Shown here piece by piece: positions 1 through 6,424 of a DNA stretch of 6,424 nucleotides; the stretch's first letter is position 1, and every line of letters begins with the position of its first letter. The notes under the pieces were generated by a model, which saw only the letters and a program-made list of their open reading frames with translations, ran no database searches and was not told the DNA's origin. A program made the translations under genes and the position numbers. The stretch is taken from positions 1 through 6,424 of the IMG/VR virus record IMGVR_UViG_2700989228_000060; one strand, written 5' to 3'. The DNA is from a virus.

Positions 1-98
1 AATGAACTCATAATTAATAATTATTATTATTCGATGAAATCGGGATTAAATGTATCATTATATATTTTAGTCTTGTTAGCATCTTGTAAGTACTTGTA
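1..98. repeat. Terminal direct repeat, left copy, identical to 6327-6424. It marks a circular 6326-nt genome (assembly overlap). It contains the first 11 nt of VP1 (1-11) and the last 72 nt of the VP4 ORF including its stop codon (27-98).
   Basis: By-eye comparison base by base: the 98 nt starting aatgaactcataattaataatt and ending cttgtaagtacttgta occur at both window ends. The VP1 ATG at 6335-6337 corresponds to 9-11. Confidence 0.97.
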
Positions 99-1490
99 TT
101 GTTTCATACGGTTATTGATACCGAATTGTGAGTACTTTTGCTTAGATAATTCGACCTTTGTAGGGTCTAATTTATCATCAGTGTAAAACAAATCTTCGGC
201 AGTTTGTAAATCAATACCAAAACTTTCGCACACCCAAGACGCATTAGACCAAATAAAATCTTTATACCTTTCGAGCAGCTGCTCATAAAAGGTAGGATCT
301 ATACCCAACAAGTGGTGTATAGGTTGATGTAGGTTTTCTATGTATATCTTTTCATATTCTAATTGTTGTTTTAATAGGTAATAATCTTTGTTTTTATAAT
401 AGTTGTCCAATAGTCGGACATACTCACGAGTAGATACGCCAAATTCTTTACAGAAGCGAGCGCATTGTCTAGCACAGTAACAATCTATTGAGCTTTCGAA
501 GTGTTCTTTGACTTCTCTTTCTGGATGCTCTCTTTTATAACCATAAATTCGTAATTTTTCAACACTAGATAACGAGCGGTAGCCGCGACACTTTGGGAAA
601 AATCGCATTTCAAGCGCACGGGGAGGTTGAACATATACGGTAGATTGAGTGGCAATATCATATTGATAGTGTCCATAAGTTCCGTTAAAGGCATTTTTGA
701 GTAATTCCTTTTCATCATCCTCGCCATATCCGATAATAGGCGATTTACTTTGGACATGGAATGGACGGGTAAATTTAAGCTGTAGAAACGTTGGCAAACG
801 AGAATTGCCAGCAACGTATTTTGCAACGTACTGAGCGGCAGTGCTGTGGACGAGGCTTGGTTCTCGCACAGAACCATACGTCCAACTTTCACGGAGAAAT
901 TGCAAGATGTGCGCCATGATGGTTGGACTATCGAAGAATAAGATTGCATGATAATGCGGGCGGTAGGTTTTTCCGCCATACTCGGCAGCGAGGAAGTAAC
1001 GTAACGTTTGTGATTCATCTTTGATATTGTTTTTTTTGAATAAGTAAGCTATCTTTGCGCGTAAACGCTTGAAGAAACCTTGAACATCTTTAATATTGAA
1101 AGTCGGAATAATATACTTTCGATTATATTTATCATGATTGAGACGAATGTCAGCGGAGAAAGCGGGAATATCCAATATATCATAACAACCTTTTTCTATT
1201 GCAAATTGGCTAACATAGCGAAGATGTTCACCGTATTCATCTTGAATAGGTTCTAAAGAGTAATAGGGTATATGCTCGTTGTCATACGTCAGTGTAATGA
1301 ATAAGTTGTATCTATGCTTTTTGCACTCTAACTGTACACGATATGACCAATGTGAGCCTTTAGCGTTTAAGCACGCAGCACAATGTCTGCAAGGAGCATA
1401 AACAACCTCTTTTGTATAAGGGTTAATTATACGCTTTGGACTCAAACATCGGTCAATGTTAGGTAATTCGTCTACTTTATTAATAAACAT
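27..1490 (-). CDS. VP4: Replication initiation protein VP4, a rolling-circle HUH endonuclease of the Microviridae gene A / VP4 family
   Basis: 487-aa ORF. RCR motif 1 FITLTY lies at 1284-1301 and motif 2 HYHAILF (HUH) at 936-956. Motif 3 YVAKYV, with two catalytic Tyr in YxxKY spacing, lies at 813-830. There is an N-terminal Cys cluster (C15, then CRHCAAC at aa 34-40). All motifs were checked by back-translating the DNA. Confidence 0.93.
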   Translation of the reverse strand: MFINKVDELPNIDRCLSPKRIINPYTKEVVYAPCRHCAACLNAKGSHWSYRVQLECKKHRYNLFITLTYDNEHIPYYSLEPIQDEYGEHLRYVSQFAIEKGCYDILDIPAFSADIRLNHDKYNRKYIIPTFNIKDVQGFFKRLRAKIAYLFKKNNIKDESQTLRYFLAAEYGGKTYRPHYHAILFFDSPTIMAHILQFLRESWTYGSVREPSLVHSTAAQYVAKYVAGNSRLPTFLQLKFTRPFHVQSKSPIIGYGEDDEKELLKNAFNGTYGHYQYDIATQSTVYVQPPRALEMRFFPKCRGYRSLSSVEKLRIYGYKREHPEREVKEHFESSIDCYCARQCARFCKEFGVSTREYVRLLDNYYKNKDYYLLKQQLEYEKIYIENLHQPIHHLLGIDPTFYEQLLERYKDFIWSNASWVCESFGIDLQTAEDLFYTDDKLDPTKVELSKQKYSQFGINNRMKQYKYLQDANKTKIYNDTFNPDFIE

Positions 1491-1492
1491 AC

Positions 1493-1669
1493 CTAAGGAT
1501 TATTACGCTTTTTTGGATTGATAAACAAACCAAGTAAGAATGTAACGATATTGATAACTATCGTTGTTAGTGTACTAGCTTGTTCGGGGTCTAAACCGCC
1601 TTTACTAGCAGCGTAACTGTTAGCACCCATAGCTACAGCAGCTAATGCCATTAAAATTTTACTTTTCAT
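1493..1669 (-). CDS. Small membrane protein of 58 aa, a candidate holin-, pinholin- or spanin-like lysis accessory. It is not in the supplied ORF track, which lists nothing shorter than 62 aa.
   Basis: Hand translation gives MKSKILMALAAVAMGANSYAASKGGLDPEQASTLTTIVINIVTFLLGLFINPKKRNNP, then TAG at 1493-1495. It has an Ala/Gly-rich N-terminal hydrophobic segment and a C-terminal TM helix followed by a basic tail. It fills the gap between the peptidase and VP4 almost exactly, with the stop 2 nt before the VP4 ATG. Confidence 0.55.
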   Translation of the reverse strand: MKSKILMALAAVAMGANSYAASKGGLDPEQASTLTTIVINIVTFLLGLFINPKKRNNP

Positions 1670-1722
1670 AATTAAAGAATGAATTAAAAATTAATAATAT
1701 AATGAATAATTGAAGTAGTATA

Positions 1723-2052
1723 TCATTTAGGGTCATATTCTATATGGATATGGTCTTTTTCAAGAACTACGTCACAATCTCTAAGATTTGGATCAGAAGC
1801 AAGAGCATCATAAAAAAGATGTATTTCATCTTTTGGCTTATCGTTAATACGAACATCAAATGCTAAACCTTGATAATGTTTAGAGTTCTTCATATGTTTA
1901 CCGTCTGTTACAGAAGTAATAACCATTTTCTTAGGATTAAAGTACCTAAAATGAATATTAGAAGCATAAACAATTAAAGGGAACATAACAGGTTTTAAAC
2001 CCTCAATTTTAACACCAGATTTAAACTCAAATTGATTGATTAAATAGTACAT
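1723..2052 (-). CDS. Zinc peptidase of the M15 / LAS superfamily (D-Ala-D-Ala carboxypeptidase or L-Ala-D-Glu endopeptidase type), a probable endolysin
   Basis: 109-aa ORF. SKHYQGLAFD (aa 57-66, nt 1855-1884) matches the LAS zinc-site motif SxHxxGxAxD (H-x6-D). HIH (aa 101-103, nt 1744-1752) supplies the HxH third ligand. ITSVTDG occupies the position of the TSGYR-like motif in M15_3/M15_4-type domains. There is no signal peptide and no wall-binding domain. Confidence 0.85.
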   Translation of the reverse strand: MYYLINQFEFKSGVKIEGLKPVMFPLIVYASNIHFRYFNPKKMVITSVTDGKHMKNSKHYQGLAFDVRINDKPKDEIHLFYDALASDPNLRDCDVVLEKDHIHIEYDPK

Positions 2053-2416
2053 AATAAATAAATTTTAGTTACATGGTGCAAATATAATAAACTAGATAAT
2101 AACGATTATGAATATTACATTTTTTAACTATGTTTTAACATATAAGCAATAAAATCGGTTTTCTGTCAGTTTTTGTAATATATGCCAAGGGGAGACACAA
2201 CTTCGATAAGGTTTGAAGAAGTTGCACTTCGTGAAAACTGATTAATAATTTACATCATAAGTATAAATAATTGACATTTAAACACTTCTTCGAAGTAGAG
2301 CGGTATATTTTTAACGCAACAGAGTTGCGATTGCGTTTCCTCCTTTCATCAGGGCTCCAAACTAGTAAAAAGATTTTCCTTTTATGACGTTGCACTAAGC
2401 TTGGATATACAAGGAT
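2053..2416 (-). other. Large noncoding region of 364 nt, the only long gap in the genome. It is the candidate site of the promoter(s) and of the replication or complementary-strand origin.
   Basis: The longest ORFs found in the frames translated by hand, on either strand, are about 11-19 codons. The region is dense in hairpins and short repeats (see findings). It lies between the terminator at 2417-2443 and the first gene of the unidirectional gene array. Confidence 0.6.
2079..2086 (-). promoter_or_regulatory. Bacteroidota-type -7 promoter element TAnnTTTG (TATATTTG on the minus strand) upstream of the peptidase gene
   Basis: Plus-strand caaatata at 2079-2086 is TATATTTG on the minus strand, 26 nt upstream of the peptidase ATG (2052). 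No clean -33 TTTG was seen at the expected spacing. Confidence 0.3.
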
Positions 2417-2443
2417 AAAAAAAGCACCTACCGAAGTAAGTGC
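2417..2443 (-). terminator. Rho-independent terminator on the coding strand, with a UUCG tetraloop
   Basis: The minus-strand RNA reads GCACUUAC-UUCG-GUAGGUGC, an 8-bp stem with one G-U pair. Seven U residues follow directly (plus-strand A7 at 2417-2423). The stem starts 6 nt after the stop of the 40-aa ORF. Confidence 0.75.
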
Positions 2444-2449
2444 CTTTTA

Positions 2450-2572
2450 CTAGGAGAATAAGAAAGCAATAATAAAACATATTAAAGCTAATACATACTT
2501 AAATAATAATAAAGCAATAATAACATACAAAAATATACGTAATACTTTATACAACTTTTGTTTTTCGTTCAT
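2450..2572 (-). CDS. Hydrophobic micro-ORF of 40 aa, a putative small membrane protein. It is not in the supplied ORF track.
   Basis: Hand translation gives MNEKQKLYKVLRIFLYVIIALLLFKYVLALICFIIAFLFS, then TAG at 2450-2452. It has a polar, basic N-terminus followed by about 28 hydrophobic residues. It sits between the VP2 stop and the terminator. AT-rich sequence can produce such ORFs by chance. Confidence 0.4.
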   Translation of the reverse strand: MNEKQKLYKVLRIFLYVIIALLLFKYVLALICFIIAFLFS

Positions 2573-2590
2573 ATAATGTTATTTTTTGCA

Positions 2591-2598
2591 CAAATGTA
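2591..2598 (-). promoter_or_regulatory. Second TAnnTTTG-type motif (TACATTTG on the minus strand) between VP2 and the 40-aa ORF
   Basis: Plus-strand caaatgta at 2591-2598 lies 18 nt upstream of the micro-ORF ATG. Motif match only. Confidence 0.2.
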
Positions 2599-2604
2599 CA
2601 AATA

Positions 2605-3723
2605 CTATTTAACTTTACCCATTTTTTTAATCTTTTTAATATGTCCAACAGTTCTAACACCACCTTCAGCACCATTTATAATATCACCGCCACGGCGGAA
2701 CCACTTATCTGTATCGTAATCACCCAATCTTTTTAAAACATACTGATTATCAAGATAACCAGAATATACGTCTTGTTGTGTCTTTTGCAACGCTGCTTTA
2801 TATTGACCAACAATAAATTCCATAGATCTAGCCCTAGTAACATTATCCAAATGAATACCAGTTCTTTCCTCAACCTTTTTCAAAGTATCAGCAGCCTTGT
2901 TATTAATTTCGGCAAAACTAAGATTACGGTTAGTAATAGCATTCATACGGTTAGTATCTGAATTCTTAAGGTTTGCAATAGCATTCATGCGATTAGAATC
3001 CGCATTCTTATAACCTGTAATAGTTTCCATTGTCAGTTTTGCCATTTCAGCTTTAAACTGTTCTTCTGCATGTTTTTGTTTGAAGCCTAAATCAAATGAC
3101 GCTAAATCTTTTTGTATTTTTAATAAATCGGTTTCAGCTTGTGTCTTACCTACCAAAGCTTGTAACTGTGCAAGGTTCATATTATTAATATCTGGAAGTG
3201 TAAGATTATTAATATCTTGAGCCGTTTTCTCTGAATCAAGTTTACCTTTTTGACTTTTTTTTAACCCAATATCAGCTAAATAAACATCGTCTTTATGTAG
3301 ATTATCAATAGCAAGACCTTTTCTCTGTTCTTCTTTAATTTGAATATCAGCTTGCGCCTGCGACAAATCAATTAAATTACGAATAGAATTTTGAGACGCT
3401 GCTTGCAACGACTCACCAAATTGAGTAATAGGAGCAATTTGCGGAGCGTTAGGGGCTTGCATAGTAGATTGTTGACTACCACTTGAAATATTACCTAAAG
3501 CAAGATAAGGGTTAATACCAGCTTCTTCGTATCTAGCACGTTGAGCAGCGGGGGTATTATACGCATTTTGTTCACGTATCATATCACGATTAAACCGCAT
3601 TTGCTCATGAAACATATTCATTTGTGTTTCATTAGCGGAATTTTGTGCGAAAGCACCAATAGCACCACCAGCTAGAGAACCAACGGCAGAGATTAAAGAC
3701 GGAGCGATAGAAGAACTAGACAT
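2605..3723 (-). CDS. VP2: Minor capsid / DNA pilot protein VP2
   Basis: 372-aa ORF. It has a Gly/Ala/Ser-rich hydrophobic N-terminus (IAPSLISAVGSLAGGAIGAFA). The block that follows (NMFHEQMRFNRDMIREQNAYNTPAAQRARYEEAGINPYLALG) resembles what I remember of gokushovirus/alpavirus VP2 proteins. Downstream come a long Q/K/E/L-rich predicted coiled-coil region and a basic C-terminus. Confidence 0.85.
   Translation of the reverse strand: MSSSSIAPSLISAVGSLAGGAIGAFAQNSANETQMNMFHEQMRFNRDMIREQNAYNTPAAQRARYEEAGINPYLALGNISSGSQQSTMQAPNAPQIAPITQFGESLQAASQNSIRNLIDLSQAQADIQIKEEQRKGLAIDNLHKDDVYLADIGLKKSQKGKLDSEKTAQDINNLTLPDINNMNLAQLQALVGKTQAETDLLKIQKDLASFDLGFKQKHAEEQFKAEMAKLTMETITGYKNADSNRMNAIANLKNSDTNRMNAITNRNLSFAEINNKAADTLKKVEERTGIHLDNVTRARSMEFIVGQYKAALQKTQQDVYSGYLDNQYVLKRLGDYDTDKWFRRGGDIINGAEGGVRTVGHIKKIKKMGKVK
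2935..3010 (-). repeat. In-frame tandem duplication inside VP2, period 42 nt (14 aa)
   Basis: 2935-2968 and 2977-3010 match at 29 of 34 nt. They encode DSNRMNAIANLK and SDTNRMNAITNR. A partial third unit (acggttagta) occurs at 2926-2935. Confidence 0.8.
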
Positions 3724-3730
3724 ATAATTA

Positions 3731-3769
3731 AAAATTTAAAACCCTACCTAACAAGGCAGCTAGATAGGG
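3731..3769 (-). terminator. Terminator-like or attenuator hairpin between the VP3-like gene and VP2
   Basis: The minus-strand RNA reads CCCUAUCU-(12-nt loop)-AGGUAGGG, 8 bp with one G-U pair, followed by UUUUAAAUUUUU. The hairpin spans 3742-3769 and the U-rich tract 3731-3741. The large loop and interrupted U tract make it weaker than the 2417-2443 terminator. Confidence 0.4.
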
Positions 3770-3791
3770 CGAGTTAAACATATATATAAAA

Positions 3792-4253
3792 TTAAACTTG
3801 TGGTTCTGAAGTAGAAGTAGTAGAAATGTCAGAAGTATCGGGCAACGGTTCTGATTCTTCTTTCATTTCCTTTTCACTCAACAAAGCATCACGATACTCT
3901 TTAACATCCTCGAGATAACGATTAATCTCAACGGGGTCACTGATATACTTACTTGGTATCATCATCAATATATCATCATCACTTAAACCTTTGGTAGAAT
4001 TACGTGATTTAAGCTCTTGAAGATTAGATATAATAAGTTCTTTTTCGGAACGAGATACAAGAGGATTAAACAAGCGAGATAAATCACCGTCACGATGCCC
4101 AGTAACTGGGTTTATAGGTGAAAGAAGTTCTACACTTTCAGTTTCACATATTGGCATAGATGTAGGAACATTACCTACAAAATCGGGGGCAATATTAGAG
4201 GGACTATCATCCGCTACATATTGATTAAAAATAATACTTGAACGTAAATTCAT
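3792..4253 (-). CDS. Hypothetical acidic protein of 153 aa, possibly an internal scaffolding protein (VP3-like)
   Basis: The ORF is tightly packed, 11 nt after the VP1 stop. Its size and position among the structural genes fit a VP3-type scaffold. It has an acidic, Ser/Thr-rich C-terminal tail (EESEPLPDTSDISTTSTSEPQV). I recognise no diagnostic motif, so coding status is likely but the function is a guess. Confidence 0.6.
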   Translation of the reverse strand: MNLRSSIIFNQYVADDSPSNIAPDFVGNVPTSMPICETESVELLSPINPVTGHRDGDLSRLFNPLVSRSEKELIISNLQELKSRNSTKGLSDDDILMMIPSKYISDPVEINRYLEDVKEYRDALLSEKEMKEESEPLPDTSDISTTSTSEPQV

Positions 4254-4264
4254 AACTACATAAT

Positions 4265-6337
4265 TTAAAGATTCATACTACCAACAACAGACATAGGACG
4301 GACTGCCTTAACATCAAAGTAAGAGTTAATCATAAATTGGTCAGTCATTGTACGACCGTCATAATTGAAAGAGAATATAGGGTCTAATACTTTAGGGTCA
4401 ATCATAAAGTTACGCAAACTTAAGAAAGATTTTTGATTTTTGTCATCACCTTTATAAGTATAAGTATTCATACGTGGAGTAGTCCAAGCGCTCAACGTAC
4501 CAAAACTTTGGAACTCACCGAATACCAAGTCCCTACTATTCTTATATTCTGCATAACGTGAGGTATAACCTAAGATACCGTTATTAACATCGGTATTAGT
4601 TGTGAAGCACAAATCAGATTGTAAAATAGGTTGTAATCCAAGATTTTGAAACTCTGGTTGGAAGTAATCCATACGATCGAGTTTGCGGTTAAAGGGATTC
4701 ATAAACTCAGCGTTGTAATCTACTTGTGGGGCAATAGAATAGATACACATAATCAAGCCATGTTCTTTAACATCAAAGTTTATTTTACCACTATTCATAG
4801 AGCCAATACCTTTACCGAACATCTGACCTGTAACAGAGGGAGAAGAAGCCTTTGTAGTAGGGTCTACAGCCGTACCGTTAGCAGTACTTATAACTTCACT
4901 AATAGCTACTGTATTATCAAAACCACCTATAAACTGTGCGCAATCTCTACGACTTTCGGGTACTTTAAAGCCATAATGTGCTGCTATCTGACTAGAGTAA
5001 TCAAGACCGTTAGCACGGCGAGTAGCTTCAAGCATTTTTTCAAGGGCAAACGCTGCCTTAATGTCTGCAACAGAAAGATAATTACTAGTATCAGTATTTA
5101 CAACAACAGAAGTATCACCAGCACCACGCAATAAATCTGGTTCTTGAAAACCATTAGTAAAAGTAGGCAAATTAAATATGCCTTCAGTATACAACACACT
5201 AGGTAAAGCAGAAGTTAACCAATCTTTTTGCCAATAGCGATAACGAAGATTAAAGAGATTATAGACTTCATTATTATCCATTAAACCACCTTTATACATA
5301 TAATCTACATTGAAACAAGTAGGGTCTGCCTTTTCCCATTGCTGATTACGATAGAAGTCATTATATATACGTTGATAAGCTAGAGGACGGAAAGCACTAA
5401 CGTGATAAGATTTTAAAGTAGCTAGGTTTTTATTCTTTTCATCAGTAATAGGGAAATAAACATACTTATTAGAAATCTTTTTATCACGTGTATCATAGTA
5501 AGGTAATATCATACGACCGTCAGACGATACACCATATTCCATTAAGTTCAACAGACGGAAAGCACCATAAGTATAACTATAACCGTGTACATCTTTATTT
5601 TTATCTTTAGTAAAATCGAAAGGAACACTATCGGGTAACGCATGATAAGAAGAACCCCAGAACGTACCAGAGTGATGCGGTTTATTATTACCACTACCAA
5701 AATGAAAATTATGAGTAAAAGGATAATTCTCATCATTATCTATAGGATTATCTGAATGATGACCATCGTCAATAGGATGAGAAGTATCAGCATCAACAGA
5801 AGAACGAGTAGACGCAGCTAAAGGGGGTTGATTAGGATTAATTGGAGACGGTCCAGCGGTAGGAGCTTTTTCGTTAGAATAAGGAACTTCATAAGGGTCA
5901 GAACCAATATGACCTTTAAAACGAGAACCATCCTCTTTACCAATAGACGATAAAAAAGACAACAAGTCAAAGCTAGGTACACTATTAGGAACGTCACTAA
6001 AGGAAGATATATCACCTTTTAAATCTTTAGGGTCACGGAAAGAACGGTCACCATTGGTTACACCAGCAAAGAAGCGGTCAGAACTAGACCATAAAGCACG
6101 ATAGGGAACGAAGAAGAAGTGATAGTATTCCTTACAACGAGCGAAAGCAGCTGTATTCAGTGGTTGAGTCCTTACGAGGTCTTGTACTGAAATACTAAAA
6201 TGTTCGCCCGGATTAACTTCTTGTGTTAGAACCGGCAGTAATGCACCAGCGGGAGCGGAGAAGATACGGCGACTAGATAAGTCAAAACCGTTCCTAGATA
6301 GGGTAGGGTGGGGGGTAGGTAATTTGAATGAACTCAT
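4265..6337 (-). CDS. VP1: Major capsid protein VP1 (Microviridae F-protein family)
   Basis: 690-aa ORF. The N-terminal region NGFDLS...LLPV...NPGE...TQPLNTAAFARCKEYYHFFFVPYRALW resembles what I remember of conserved Microviridae VP1/F N-terminal blocks. The C-terminal beta-rich region ends in ...DVKAVRPMSV. The start codon lies inside the terminal repeat, which is consistent with circularity. Confidence 0.95.
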   Translation of the reverse strand: MSSFKLPTPHPTLSRNGFDLSSRRIFSAPAGALLPVLTQEVNPGEHFSISVQDLVRTQPLNTAAFARCKEYYHFFFVPYRALWSSSDRFFAGVTNGDRSFRDPKDLKGDISSFSDVPNSVPSFDLLSFLSSIGKEDGSRFKGHIGSDPYEVPYSNEKAPTAGPSPINPNQPPLAASTRSSVDADTSHPIDDGHHSDNPIDNDENYPFTHNFHFGSGNNKPHHSGTFWGSSYHALPDSVPFDFTKDKNKDVHGYSYTYGAFRLLNLMEYGVSSDGRMILPYYDTRDKKISNKYVYFPITDEKNKNLATLKSYHVSAFRPLAYQRIYNDFYRNQQWEKADPTCFNVDYMYKGGLMDNNEVYNLFNLRYRYWQKDWLTSALPSVLYTEGIFNLPTFTNGFQEPDLLRGAGDTSVVVNTDTSNYLSVADIKAAFALEKMLEATRRANGLDYSSQIAAHYGFKVPESRRDCAQFIGGFDNTVAISEVISTANGTAVDPTTKASSPSVTGQMFGKGIGSMNSGKINFDVKEHGLIMCIYSIAPQVDYNAEFMNPFNRKLDRMDYFQPEFQNLGLQPILQSDLCFTTNTDVNNGILGYTSRYAEYKNSRDLVFGEFQSFGTLSAWTTPRMNTYTYKGDDKNQKSFLSLRNFMIDPKVLDPIFSFNYDGRTMTDQFMINSYFDVKAVRPMSVVGSMNL

Positions 6338-6424
6338 AATTAATAATTATTATTATTCGATGAAATCGGGATTAAATGTATCATTATATATTTTAGTCTT
6401 GTTAGCATCTTGTAAGTACTTGTA
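6327..6424. repeat. Terminal direct repeat, right copy, identical to 1-98. Positions 6353-6424 are a redundant copy of the last 72 nt of the VP4 ORF including its stop codon.
   Basis: Same comparison as for 1-98. Confidence 0.97.

Follow-up and report, generated by a model that had tools for sequence, protein, structure and literature searches.

A 109-aa LAS-type peptidase and a 58-aa membrane peptide as a putative lysis cassette of an Alpavirinae-like microvirus of Prevotella bivia

A stretch of 6,424 nucleotides (nt) of viral DNA, positions 1 to 6,424 of the IMG/VR record IMGVR_UViG_2700989228_000060 (hereafter the window), was investigated, all of its open reading frames (ORFs) being found on the minus strand. 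Upstream of the replication initiator gene (VP4/Rep) lie two small genes, the first one encoding a protein of 109 amino acids (aa) with the zinc-site motifs of LAS peptidases and the second one a 58-aa membrane peptide. These genes most likely form a two-gene lysis cassette, and we consider it fairly probable that a temperate Alpavirinae-like microvirus of Prevotella bivia uses the 109-aa protein as a minimal muralytic LAS endolysin, which is released through membrane lesions made by the downstream peptide.

The 109-aa protein and its family

The ORF begins with an ATG at 2052 and its stop codon occupies 1723-1725. It is free-standing, with 53 nt separating it from the downstream ORF (1493-1669) and 552 nt of non-coding DNA upstream. 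The motif SKHYQGLAFD is found at residues 57-66 (S57-x-H59-x2-G-x-A-x-D66) and HIH at 101-103, which confirms what an earlier note, made from the sequence alone, had described, including its numbering of H59, D66 and H103. The same note saw in this protein a minimal catalytic domain with neither a wall-binding module nor a signal sequence, a description that the 109-aa sequence supports; the N-terminus is not hydrophobic (maximum Kyte-Doolittle value of 0.96 in a 19-residue window).

Homologues are very numerous. A first search returned 40, and an exhaustive profile search 5,908 representative clusters at E<=1e-3 (3,958 at E<=1e-10), almost all of them stand-alone proteins of about 100 aa for which there is no Pfam model. 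In an alignment of 37 homologues, K11, H59, D66, R68, D94, H101, I102, H103, I104 and E105 are invariant and E98 is conserved in at least 90%. The ratio of non-synonymous to synonymous substitution rates (dN/dS) against close relatives varies from 0.15 to 0.54, being only mildly informative given the few substitutions. The number of homologues, the invariant residues and the dN/dS values together place this ORF far beyond chance.

When the family profile was compared with PDB, the N-terminal domains of Hedgehog proteins (Shh, Ihh and Dhh) were recovered with E-values from 8e-7 to 4e-5. The profile alignment places H59, D66 and HIH on H141, D148 and H181-I-H183 of Shh, which make up its zinc site, the residue roles and the H-x6-D plus H-x-H motif having been defined previously (PMC6027127). 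This motif of clan MD is invariant in the 37 homologues, as H59-x6-D66 and H101-I-H103. The AlphaFold (AF2) model built from the alignment has a mean confidence (pLDDT) of 91.9. Foldseek searches of PDB with this model found the Hedgehog N-domain (HhN; template modelling (TM) score of 0.72, probability of 1.0), and the zinc LD-endopeptidase domain of VldE; a weaker match was the zinc DD-peptidase of Streptomyces (1lbu). In BFVD, the matches were a Microviridae homologue (TM score of 0.82) and many phage proteins named 'Peptidase M15A, C-terminal'. The LAS-type zinc peptidase domain proposed in the earlier note is supported by motif, family profile and predicted fold, and the structural comparison suggested there gave the HhN, VldE and 1lbu matches. 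An assignment to the LAS or Hedgehog/DD-peptidase fold (MEROPS clan MD; Pfam clan Peptidase_MD), with the M15A branch as the nearest one, is therefore well supported by a predicted structure. Judging from the sequence, the protein would bind zinc and be catalytic, with H59, D66 and H103 as the predicted zinc ligands, H101 as the first His of HxH, and E98 and E105 as candidate catalytic residues.

As for the subfamily, the 37 members match families of this clan only (HH_signal, M15_3, M15_2 and Extensin-like_C). All the matches are below threshold, HH_signal being found in 24 members and M15_3 in 11, with a best E-value of 5.7e-4. The match of the 109-aa protein to HH_signal (PF01085) covers only profile positions 98-136 of a domain whose full length is about 160 aa. 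On the other hand, none of the 37 members match VanY or Peptidase_M15_4 at E<=0.1, and no VanY/T5/Ply500-type enzyme is present in the top 50 PDB fold matches. The earlier note had likened the protein to VanY and to the T5 and Ply500 enzymes; the likeness stands for the zinc motif, while the protein stands nearest to the Hedgehog N-domain and the M15A branch. A closer relationship to those enzymes was rejected, as neither profile nor fold supports it.

The canonical microvirus peptidase (MG945328, 131 aa) reaches 59 bits for PF08291. An hhalign comparison of the mini-LAS family with this protein gave a probability of 7.8%, aligned over the zinc motif only, and a common family with the published microvirus M15_3 peptidase was consequently rejected. 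By sequence comparison, the 109-aa protein is a member of a sister family of M15_3, a second and distinct LAS family in microviruses.

Among GenBank phage records, 14 genomes contain the family, all of them Microviridae, and every copy is a 'hypothetical protein' or unannotated. Since this family of about 100 aa escapes the profile libraries and is left as 'hypothetical', surveys undercount the microviruses that encode a peptidase. One BFVD/UniProt entry, A0A8S5SY19 (Microviridae sp. ctoGr7, 43% identical), is named 'Sonic hedgehog protein, Cell adhesion Protein-Protein Complex, Autocatalytic cleavage'. This name was probably copied from the title of a structure entry, carrying no functional claim, and could mislead text-based surveys.

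Membrane peptides and neighbouring genes

The neighbourhood was investigated in 146 loci from GTDB genomes, IMG/VR and assembly look-ups, including the window and three close relatives. Microvirus VP1 and/or VP4 genes are found in 18 of them, from 13 lineages. The neighbours in the other 128 include HK97-type head and scaffold genes, indicating that these loci belong to tailed phages and prophages. We have also considered that the GTDB homologues could be binned microviruses, an idea rejected after VP1 and VP4 searches with phmmer and jackhmmer found none among L004-L059.

The 58-aa peptide of the window has a signal-peptide-like N-terminus ending in S-Y-A|A, followed by LDPEQ, one transmembrane helix (about residues 33-50; Kyte-Doolittle values of 2.1-2.5) and a basic tail, KKRNNP. 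Its stop codon is 2 nt before the Rep start. The dN/dS of 0.28-0.37 comes from few substitutions and is mildly informative. Thus, the ORF shows the architecture of a holin: it is small, has at least one transmembrane helix and a charged C-terminal tail, and adjoins a putative endolysin gene. The earlier note had argued that an enzyme of this kind needs a membrane partner or some other export route. A partner is plausible with such a candidate directly downstream, although no firm homology links the peptide to known holins.

A tiny single-pass membrane peptide is found 3' of the peptidase in at least 12 divergent microvirus lineages, and two families can be recognised. Type A, with the conserved core LDPEQ...VTFLxGLFINPKK, follows the peptidase in the window, L060, L063, L065, L066, L087, L102 and L150, the peptide of L151 being similar. 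An AxA-type cleavage motif is shared by all long forms of 56 to 60 aa (L060, L087 and L065), and the short forms of 31 to 34 aa (L102, L063, L066 and L150) equal exactly the predicted mature part. These short forms suggest a mature product of about 35-37 residues, probably with the N-terminus out and the C-terminus in. Type B peptides are 28 to 33 aa long, with a basic N-terminus and the pattern KKxNW...LLEVxKVVIGxxAGxQ, following the peptidase in L062 (1384-1485), L133 (4269-4364), L143 (3539-3706) and L144 (4791-4877). Type B ORFs are too short for most annotation pipelines.

The peptide type co-varies with the peptidase clade. Hidden Markov models (HMMs) of both types match only microvirus loci among the 146, and a scan of IMG/VR with a narrower type A alignment returned only two loci, both already in the set. 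In these 146 loci and that one scan, type A and B peptides were seen only in peptidase-carrying microviruses. From architecture and conserved synteny, the 58-aa peptide is a candidate for a holin-like role. It is a tentative possibility, falling a little short of an even chance, that the type A and B peptides, from 28 to 60 aa, represent new minimal holin classes specific to microviruses. A unimolecular spanin, which the N-terminal signal and C-terminal helix of the 58-aa peptide might suggest, was rejected, since the mature part is too short for the periplasm. A Cys in the signal-like segment is present in only 2 of the 4 long forms (L060 and L065), neither of them judged to be in a lipobox context.

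The tailed-phage loci offer a further view of the family. A small membrane ORF on the same strand, at most two genes away, is found in 63 of the 128 non-microvirus loci (49%) and in 14 of the 18 microvirus loci, compared with 16% for background genes of these loci, an enrichment of about 3-fold in the tailed-phage loci. Recognised holins occur among the tailed-phage neighbours (GTA_holin_3TM in three cases, 9e-13; phrog_3427 in four, 2e-26; phrog_9284 in one), together with one Rz-like spanin. N-terminal signal peptides or anchors are present in some family members (P0199, P0220, P0225 and P0239), which indicates a periplasmic substrate. Very large phage proteins, for example tape-measure or tail proteins, can also have an LAS/M15A domain as their C-terminal module (P0221 with 1,075 aa, and BFVD matches).

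Genome, prophage and host

An exact duplication of 98 nt is found at the ends of the window (1-98 and 6327-6424), with the VP1 start inside the repeat. The window is therefore a complete circular genome of 6,326 nt in a circularly permuted assembly. Read along the coding strand, the order is VP1, the 153-aa protein, VP2, the 40-aa ORF, the non-coding region, the 109-aa ORF, the 58-aa ORF and Rep/VP4 (coordinates in the table). For microviruses, the published gene order is VP1-VP2-VP4 with a variable location of VP3 (PMC11499846).

Table. Features of the window and their coordinates
Feature	Position	Strand	Remarks
109-aa mini LAS (Hedgehog/DD-peptidase fold) zinc peptidase, putative endolysin	1723..2052	minus	motif, family profile, predicted fold
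58-aa membrane peptide, type A, candidate holin-like partner	1493..1669	minus	53 nt downstream of the peptidase
Replication initiator (VP4/Rep)	27..1490	minus	directly 3' of the 58-aa membrane peptide
TATATTTG, fits the Bacteroidota -7 promoter consensus TAnnTTTG	2079..2086	minus	27 nt upstream of the peptidase ATG
14-nt attachment core CATAATCGTTATTA (minus-strand reading)	2097..2110	minus	duplicated at both P. bivia prophage junctions
Terminator-like hairpin, 13-pair stem then T run	2419..2448	minus	just 3' of the 40-aa ORF
Second small membrane ORF, 40 aa (MNEKQKLYKVLR... and one transmembrane helix)	2450..2572	minus	directly after VP2
DNA pilot protein (VP2)	2605..3723	minus	
153-aa protein in the position of the internal scaffold (VP3)	3792..4253	minus	no profile match; assigned by position
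Major capsid protein (VP1, Phage_F)	4265..6337	minus	
Terminal redundancy	6327..6424		identical to 1-98; assembly overlap, circular genome

The virus was found as a complete prophage in a metagenome scaffold of 146 kb (L001, 9942-16200), 3' of an L-serine dehydratase gene. The flanking proteins of this scaffold are identical to Prevotella bivia proteins, and by these exact matches P. bivia is the host. The attachment core CATAATCGTTATTA has copies at 9942-9955 and 16187-16200 of the scaffold. There is no integrase in the virus, and this absence, together with the core repeat, appears to match the host Xer/dif-type integration proposed for Bacteroidetes microviruses/Alpavirinae; the core repeat of the BMV1 prophage has 13 bp, compared with 14 nt here. 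With VP1, VP2 and VP4 genes, no integrase, and a Bacteroidales prophage bordered by a short direct repeat, the virus resembles the temperate, Alpavirinae-like microviruses described for Bacteroidota (Krupovic & Forterre 2011; 'Family 5' of Kirchberger 2022, PMC9239249), a placement made by gene content and prophage pattern. Near-identical circular genomes are available in GenBank: PV067928 (94.8% identity), PV067926 and OP549866, the latter from vaginal secretion.

Within the prophage, the peptidase is the first gene inside the left junction, 110 nt from bacterial DNA (window 2111 versus the ATG at 2052), and a locus of another lineage (L063) has the same arrangement of a bacterial gene followed by the peptidase. 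The terminator-like hairpin separates the VP1-VP3-VP2 unit from the peptidase unit; two such sites were found in the window and 0.3 were expected. The box TATATTTG could be the start of an own transcription unit with the peptidase, the 58-aa peptide and Rep, but this is a weak inference, since TAnnTTTG is not enriched in the window (8 found and 8.8 expected) and sigma-70-type promoter matches are no more frequent there than in shuffles. From the attachment core to the terminator, the non-coding sequence (about 2100-2400) is 95-99% identical to PV067928 and OP549866, above much of the coding sequence, and a short GC-rich hairpin, CGCAACAGAGTTGCG, lies within it at 2315-2329. It may be a replication origin or a regulatory region. 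A 46-aa ORF at 2255-2395 is probably spurious.

OP549866 (L002) has an overall identity of 88% to the window genome, and of 95-99% in the flanks. Its peptidase allele (L002 1706-2008 versus window 1800-2100), on the other hand, encodes a protein with 45% identity (about 60% in DNA), while the 58-aa membrane peptide is almost unchanged, with differences in 3 of 58 residues. Such a divergent allele in an otherwise similar genome makes the peptidase gene look like an exchangeable module. The related oral microvirus OR149011 (L148, 1443-2420) is devoid of the mini-peptidase, and its slot between VP2 and Rep is filled by four small, unrelated ORFs (143, 72, 67 and 62 aa), the 62-aa one being a membrane protein that abuts Rep. 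With small ORFs of this kind in the same slot, the VP2-Rep interval appears as a hotspot for accessory genes. A 36-aa ORF similar to the 40-aa membrane ORF (2450-2572) is found in the same place in OR149011, which is peptidase-less, and further homologues are present in L001, L003 and L102; this ORF could be a second lysis or membrane component.

Two other regions vary among close relatives. A long low-complexity insertion in VP1, in which Pro, Asp, His and Asn abound, covers about residues 130-260 (window about 5550-6000). No other part of the genome varies as much, identity to OP549866 being 47-73%, as expected of a surface 'mushroom' loop. The second variable region is VP2 (about 2400-3450).

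Proposed role, alternatives and known systems

We know of no experimental work on lysis by microviruses other than phiX174, a group that is among the most abundant phages of the human gut, mouth and vagina. In the reading that we favour, a soluble enzyme of 12.8 kDa would build up in the cytoplasm late in infection or after prophage induction. The 58-aa peptide would insert in the inner membrane with the N-terminus out and the C-terminus in, its signal-like N-terminus probably being cleaved to leave about 37 residues, and would permeabilise the membrane, after which the peptidase could cut peptidoglycan peptide stems or cross-links. Zinc would be held by H59, D66 and H103, and water activated by H101 and a conserved Glu (E98 or E105). 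The gene family may have been recruited from tailed phages, forming in microviruses a two-gene cassette with one of the two families of tiny peptides. Lysis by such an enzyme instead of an amurin, as proposed in the earlier note, is a possibility; an overprinted lysis gene may also be present, close relatives being too similar in Rep and VP1 to be informative about it.

Several results weigh against the endolysin reading. No curated Pfam threshold is reached by the 109-aa sequence alone: it scores 15.5 bits for HH_signal (cut-off of 22.1) and 13.5 bits for Peptidase_M15_3 (PF08291; E=0.083, gathering threshold of 23.2), not being a member of the latter, and it has no match in PHROG and NCBIfam. 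The profile searches put forward in the earlier note thus gave no match above the curated threshold for M15_3 and none at all for VanY and M15_4, and with the single-sequence annotation below threshold the fold assignment rests on the family profile and the model. In the HMM alignment, the conserved E98 is one position off E177 of Shh, and the E-values of the Foldseek matches in PDB are modest (2e-3). On the side of the membrane peptide, a search of 5.8 billion proteins with the 58-aa sequence returned its own cluster only. Phage_holin_10 reaches 19.7 bits (cut-off of 27), matching only 1 of 7 type A peptides, and PHROG has no match for the 58-aa peptide. With about 37 residues and one helix, the mature peptide is smaller than classical holins. 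No clear adjacent membrane peptide is present in L088, L108 and L152, nor in L144 at a stricter threshold, and no spanin or other outer-membrane disruptor was recognised in the window genome, although the host is diderm. Finally, in the literature searched we found no functional test of any microvirus peptidase copy, and none for the 109-aa family.

Some of these points lead to the alternative that survives best, unlikely in our judgement but deserving serious attention. According to it, the peptidase is indeed an endolysin and the 58-aa peptide is not its holin, but might disrupt the outer membrane, confer superinfection exclusion or immunity, or serve as a membrane anchor associated with Rep, with another export route for the enzyme. 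The lack of homology to known holins speaks for it, and the peptide abuts Rep, its stop lying directly before the Rep start. Moreover, the second membrane ORF could be the real holin, and OR149011, in spite of being peptidase-less, keeps small membrane ORFs at both positions. However, peptides of types A and B accompany only the peptidase in the loci and the scan described above, their type co-varies with the peptidase clade, and a small one-helix peptide with a highly basic cytoplasmic tail is holin-like.

It is improbable that the peptidase is a prophage-expressed accessory gene (moron), made in the lysogen to remodel the host wall or to give a fitness or exclusion benefit. Its location as the first gene inside the left junction, the possible promoter box in front of it and the terminator between it and the structural genes would suit such a role, as would the exchangeable module revealed by the 45%-identical allele in the 88%-identical genome of OP549866. 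Nevertheless, the gene is co-oriented with Rep and only the 58-aa ORF lies between them, so that all would share one transcription unit if there is no internal terminator. If a muralytic enzyme and a membrane peptide were expressed constitutively, the host would be put at risk, and in tailed phages the family is found in holin and spanin contexts.

VanX is a cytoplasmic enzyme that carries the SxHxxGxAxD motif. A peptidase without signal sequence and with this motif could likewise act in the cytoplasm as an enzymatic 'amurin', destroying wall precursors (D-Ala-D-Ala in the manner of VanX or, like VanY, the terminal D-Ala of UDP-MurNAc-pentapeptide or lipid II) and causing lysis free of holin, a mode so far not described for phages. 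Microviruses classically lyse by blocking wall synthesis (PMC3394797), and some peptidase microviruses have no obvious membrane partner. We consider this explanation quite improbable, since the family has no VanY or M15_4 profile match, relatives with signal peptides or anchors indicate periplasmic action, recognised holins adjoin the gene in tailed phages, and in microviruses the gene is conserved beside a membrane peptide.

Very improbable, in turn, is an entry enzyme packaged in the virion to open the wall locally for DNA delivery, a role suggested by the LAS/M15A domains that occur in tape-measure, tail and other very large phage proteins. The gene lies outside the VP1-VP3-VP2 block and behind the terminator-like hairpin, the family consists nearly entirely of free-standing proteins, and the pairing with a membrane peptide fits egress better. 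Besides, microvirus virions contain few proteins. Least probable of all is a pseudo-peptidase, a Hedgehog-like zinc module binding a wall fragment or a host protein without hydrolysis: the best sequence and fold matches are indeed Hedgehog N-domains, whose peptidase activity is disputed (PMC6027127), but the zinc ligands, the first His of HxH and the acidic residues are invariant or nearly so, the pattern of an active enzyme, while Drosophila Hh, whose activity is lost, lost those residues (PMC6027127), and related M15A phage enzymes are active (PMC5025407).

An M15 peptidase with a putative endolysin role in a microvirus is already published and the present one is not the first case. Such enzymes have been proposed as microvirus endolysins since 2012 (Roux et al. 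2012, PMC3394797; Kirchberger et al. 2022, PMC9239249; Commun Biol 2024, Occultatumvirinae, PMC11499846), a precedent in Microviridae that the earlier note had mentioned correctly. Their horizontal origin has also been published from 2012 onward, and in 5 of 11 cases an unknown ORF was adjacent to the peptidase (PMC3394797). What goes beyond the literature searched is a separate family for which Pfam has no model and which is unannotated in deposited genomes, its consistent pairing with two families of very small membrane peptides, and the identification of host and attachment site. The candidate is compact, with two genes of 330 nt and 177 nt, and directly testable, as the host is identified, cultivable and clinically relevant (vaginal). 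If it is muralytic, the 109-residue domain would be among the smallest endolysins. If the type A and B peptides are holins, they would be useful minimal models of membrane-lesion formation, and the virus would carry a complete holin-endolysin system in a single-stranded DNA phage of 6.3 kb.

Compared with the published microvirus M15_3 peptidases, the 109-aa gene is similar in being a small free-standing LAS peptidase gene, horizontally acquired, occasionally swapped between microviruses and presumed to replace single-gene lysis. In contrast, those proteins pass PF08291, whereas the 109-aa protein, at 13.5 bits, belongs to a separate family of about 100 aa, unannotated in the 14 GenBank records. 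The N-terminal domain of Hedgehog (HH_signal; PDB 1VHH and 3N1F) has its zinc site aligned residue for residue with that of the 109-aa protein and the alpha/beta sandwich in common. Nevertheless, the phage protein is about 50 residues shorter, the N-terminal part being missing (matches start at chain residue 73 or later), and, unlike Hedgehog, it is encoded by a phage and is devoid of an autoprocessing domain. Grouped with Hedgehog in this best match are the bacterial Hh/DD-peptidases (Roelink 2018, PMC6027127).

The M15A endolysin of Burkholderia phage ST79, with 149 aa and a single domain, is associated with a holin and degrades A1-gamma peptidoglycan (PMC5025407). Both proteins are small LAS peptidases reduced to the catalytic domain, in phages of Gram-negative hosts. 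ST79 is, however, a tailed phage whose enzyme is a clear PF08291 member accompanied by holin, LysB and LysC, while the 109-aa protein is from another subfamily and has only a tiny membrane peptide adjacent to it. With the VanY/M15C-type endolysins, such as the T5 L-Ala-D-Glu endopeptidase and Ply500, it shares the zinc-site logic of His/Asp/His and the general fold class, although its family has no VanY or M15_4 profile match. Finally, protein E of phiX174 is overprinted and non-enzymatic, inhibiting MraY (PMC3394797). As with E and other amurins, lysis would here be achieved by a very small genome and would involve a small membrane protein, but with an enzyme gene and a membrane-peptide gene that are separate.

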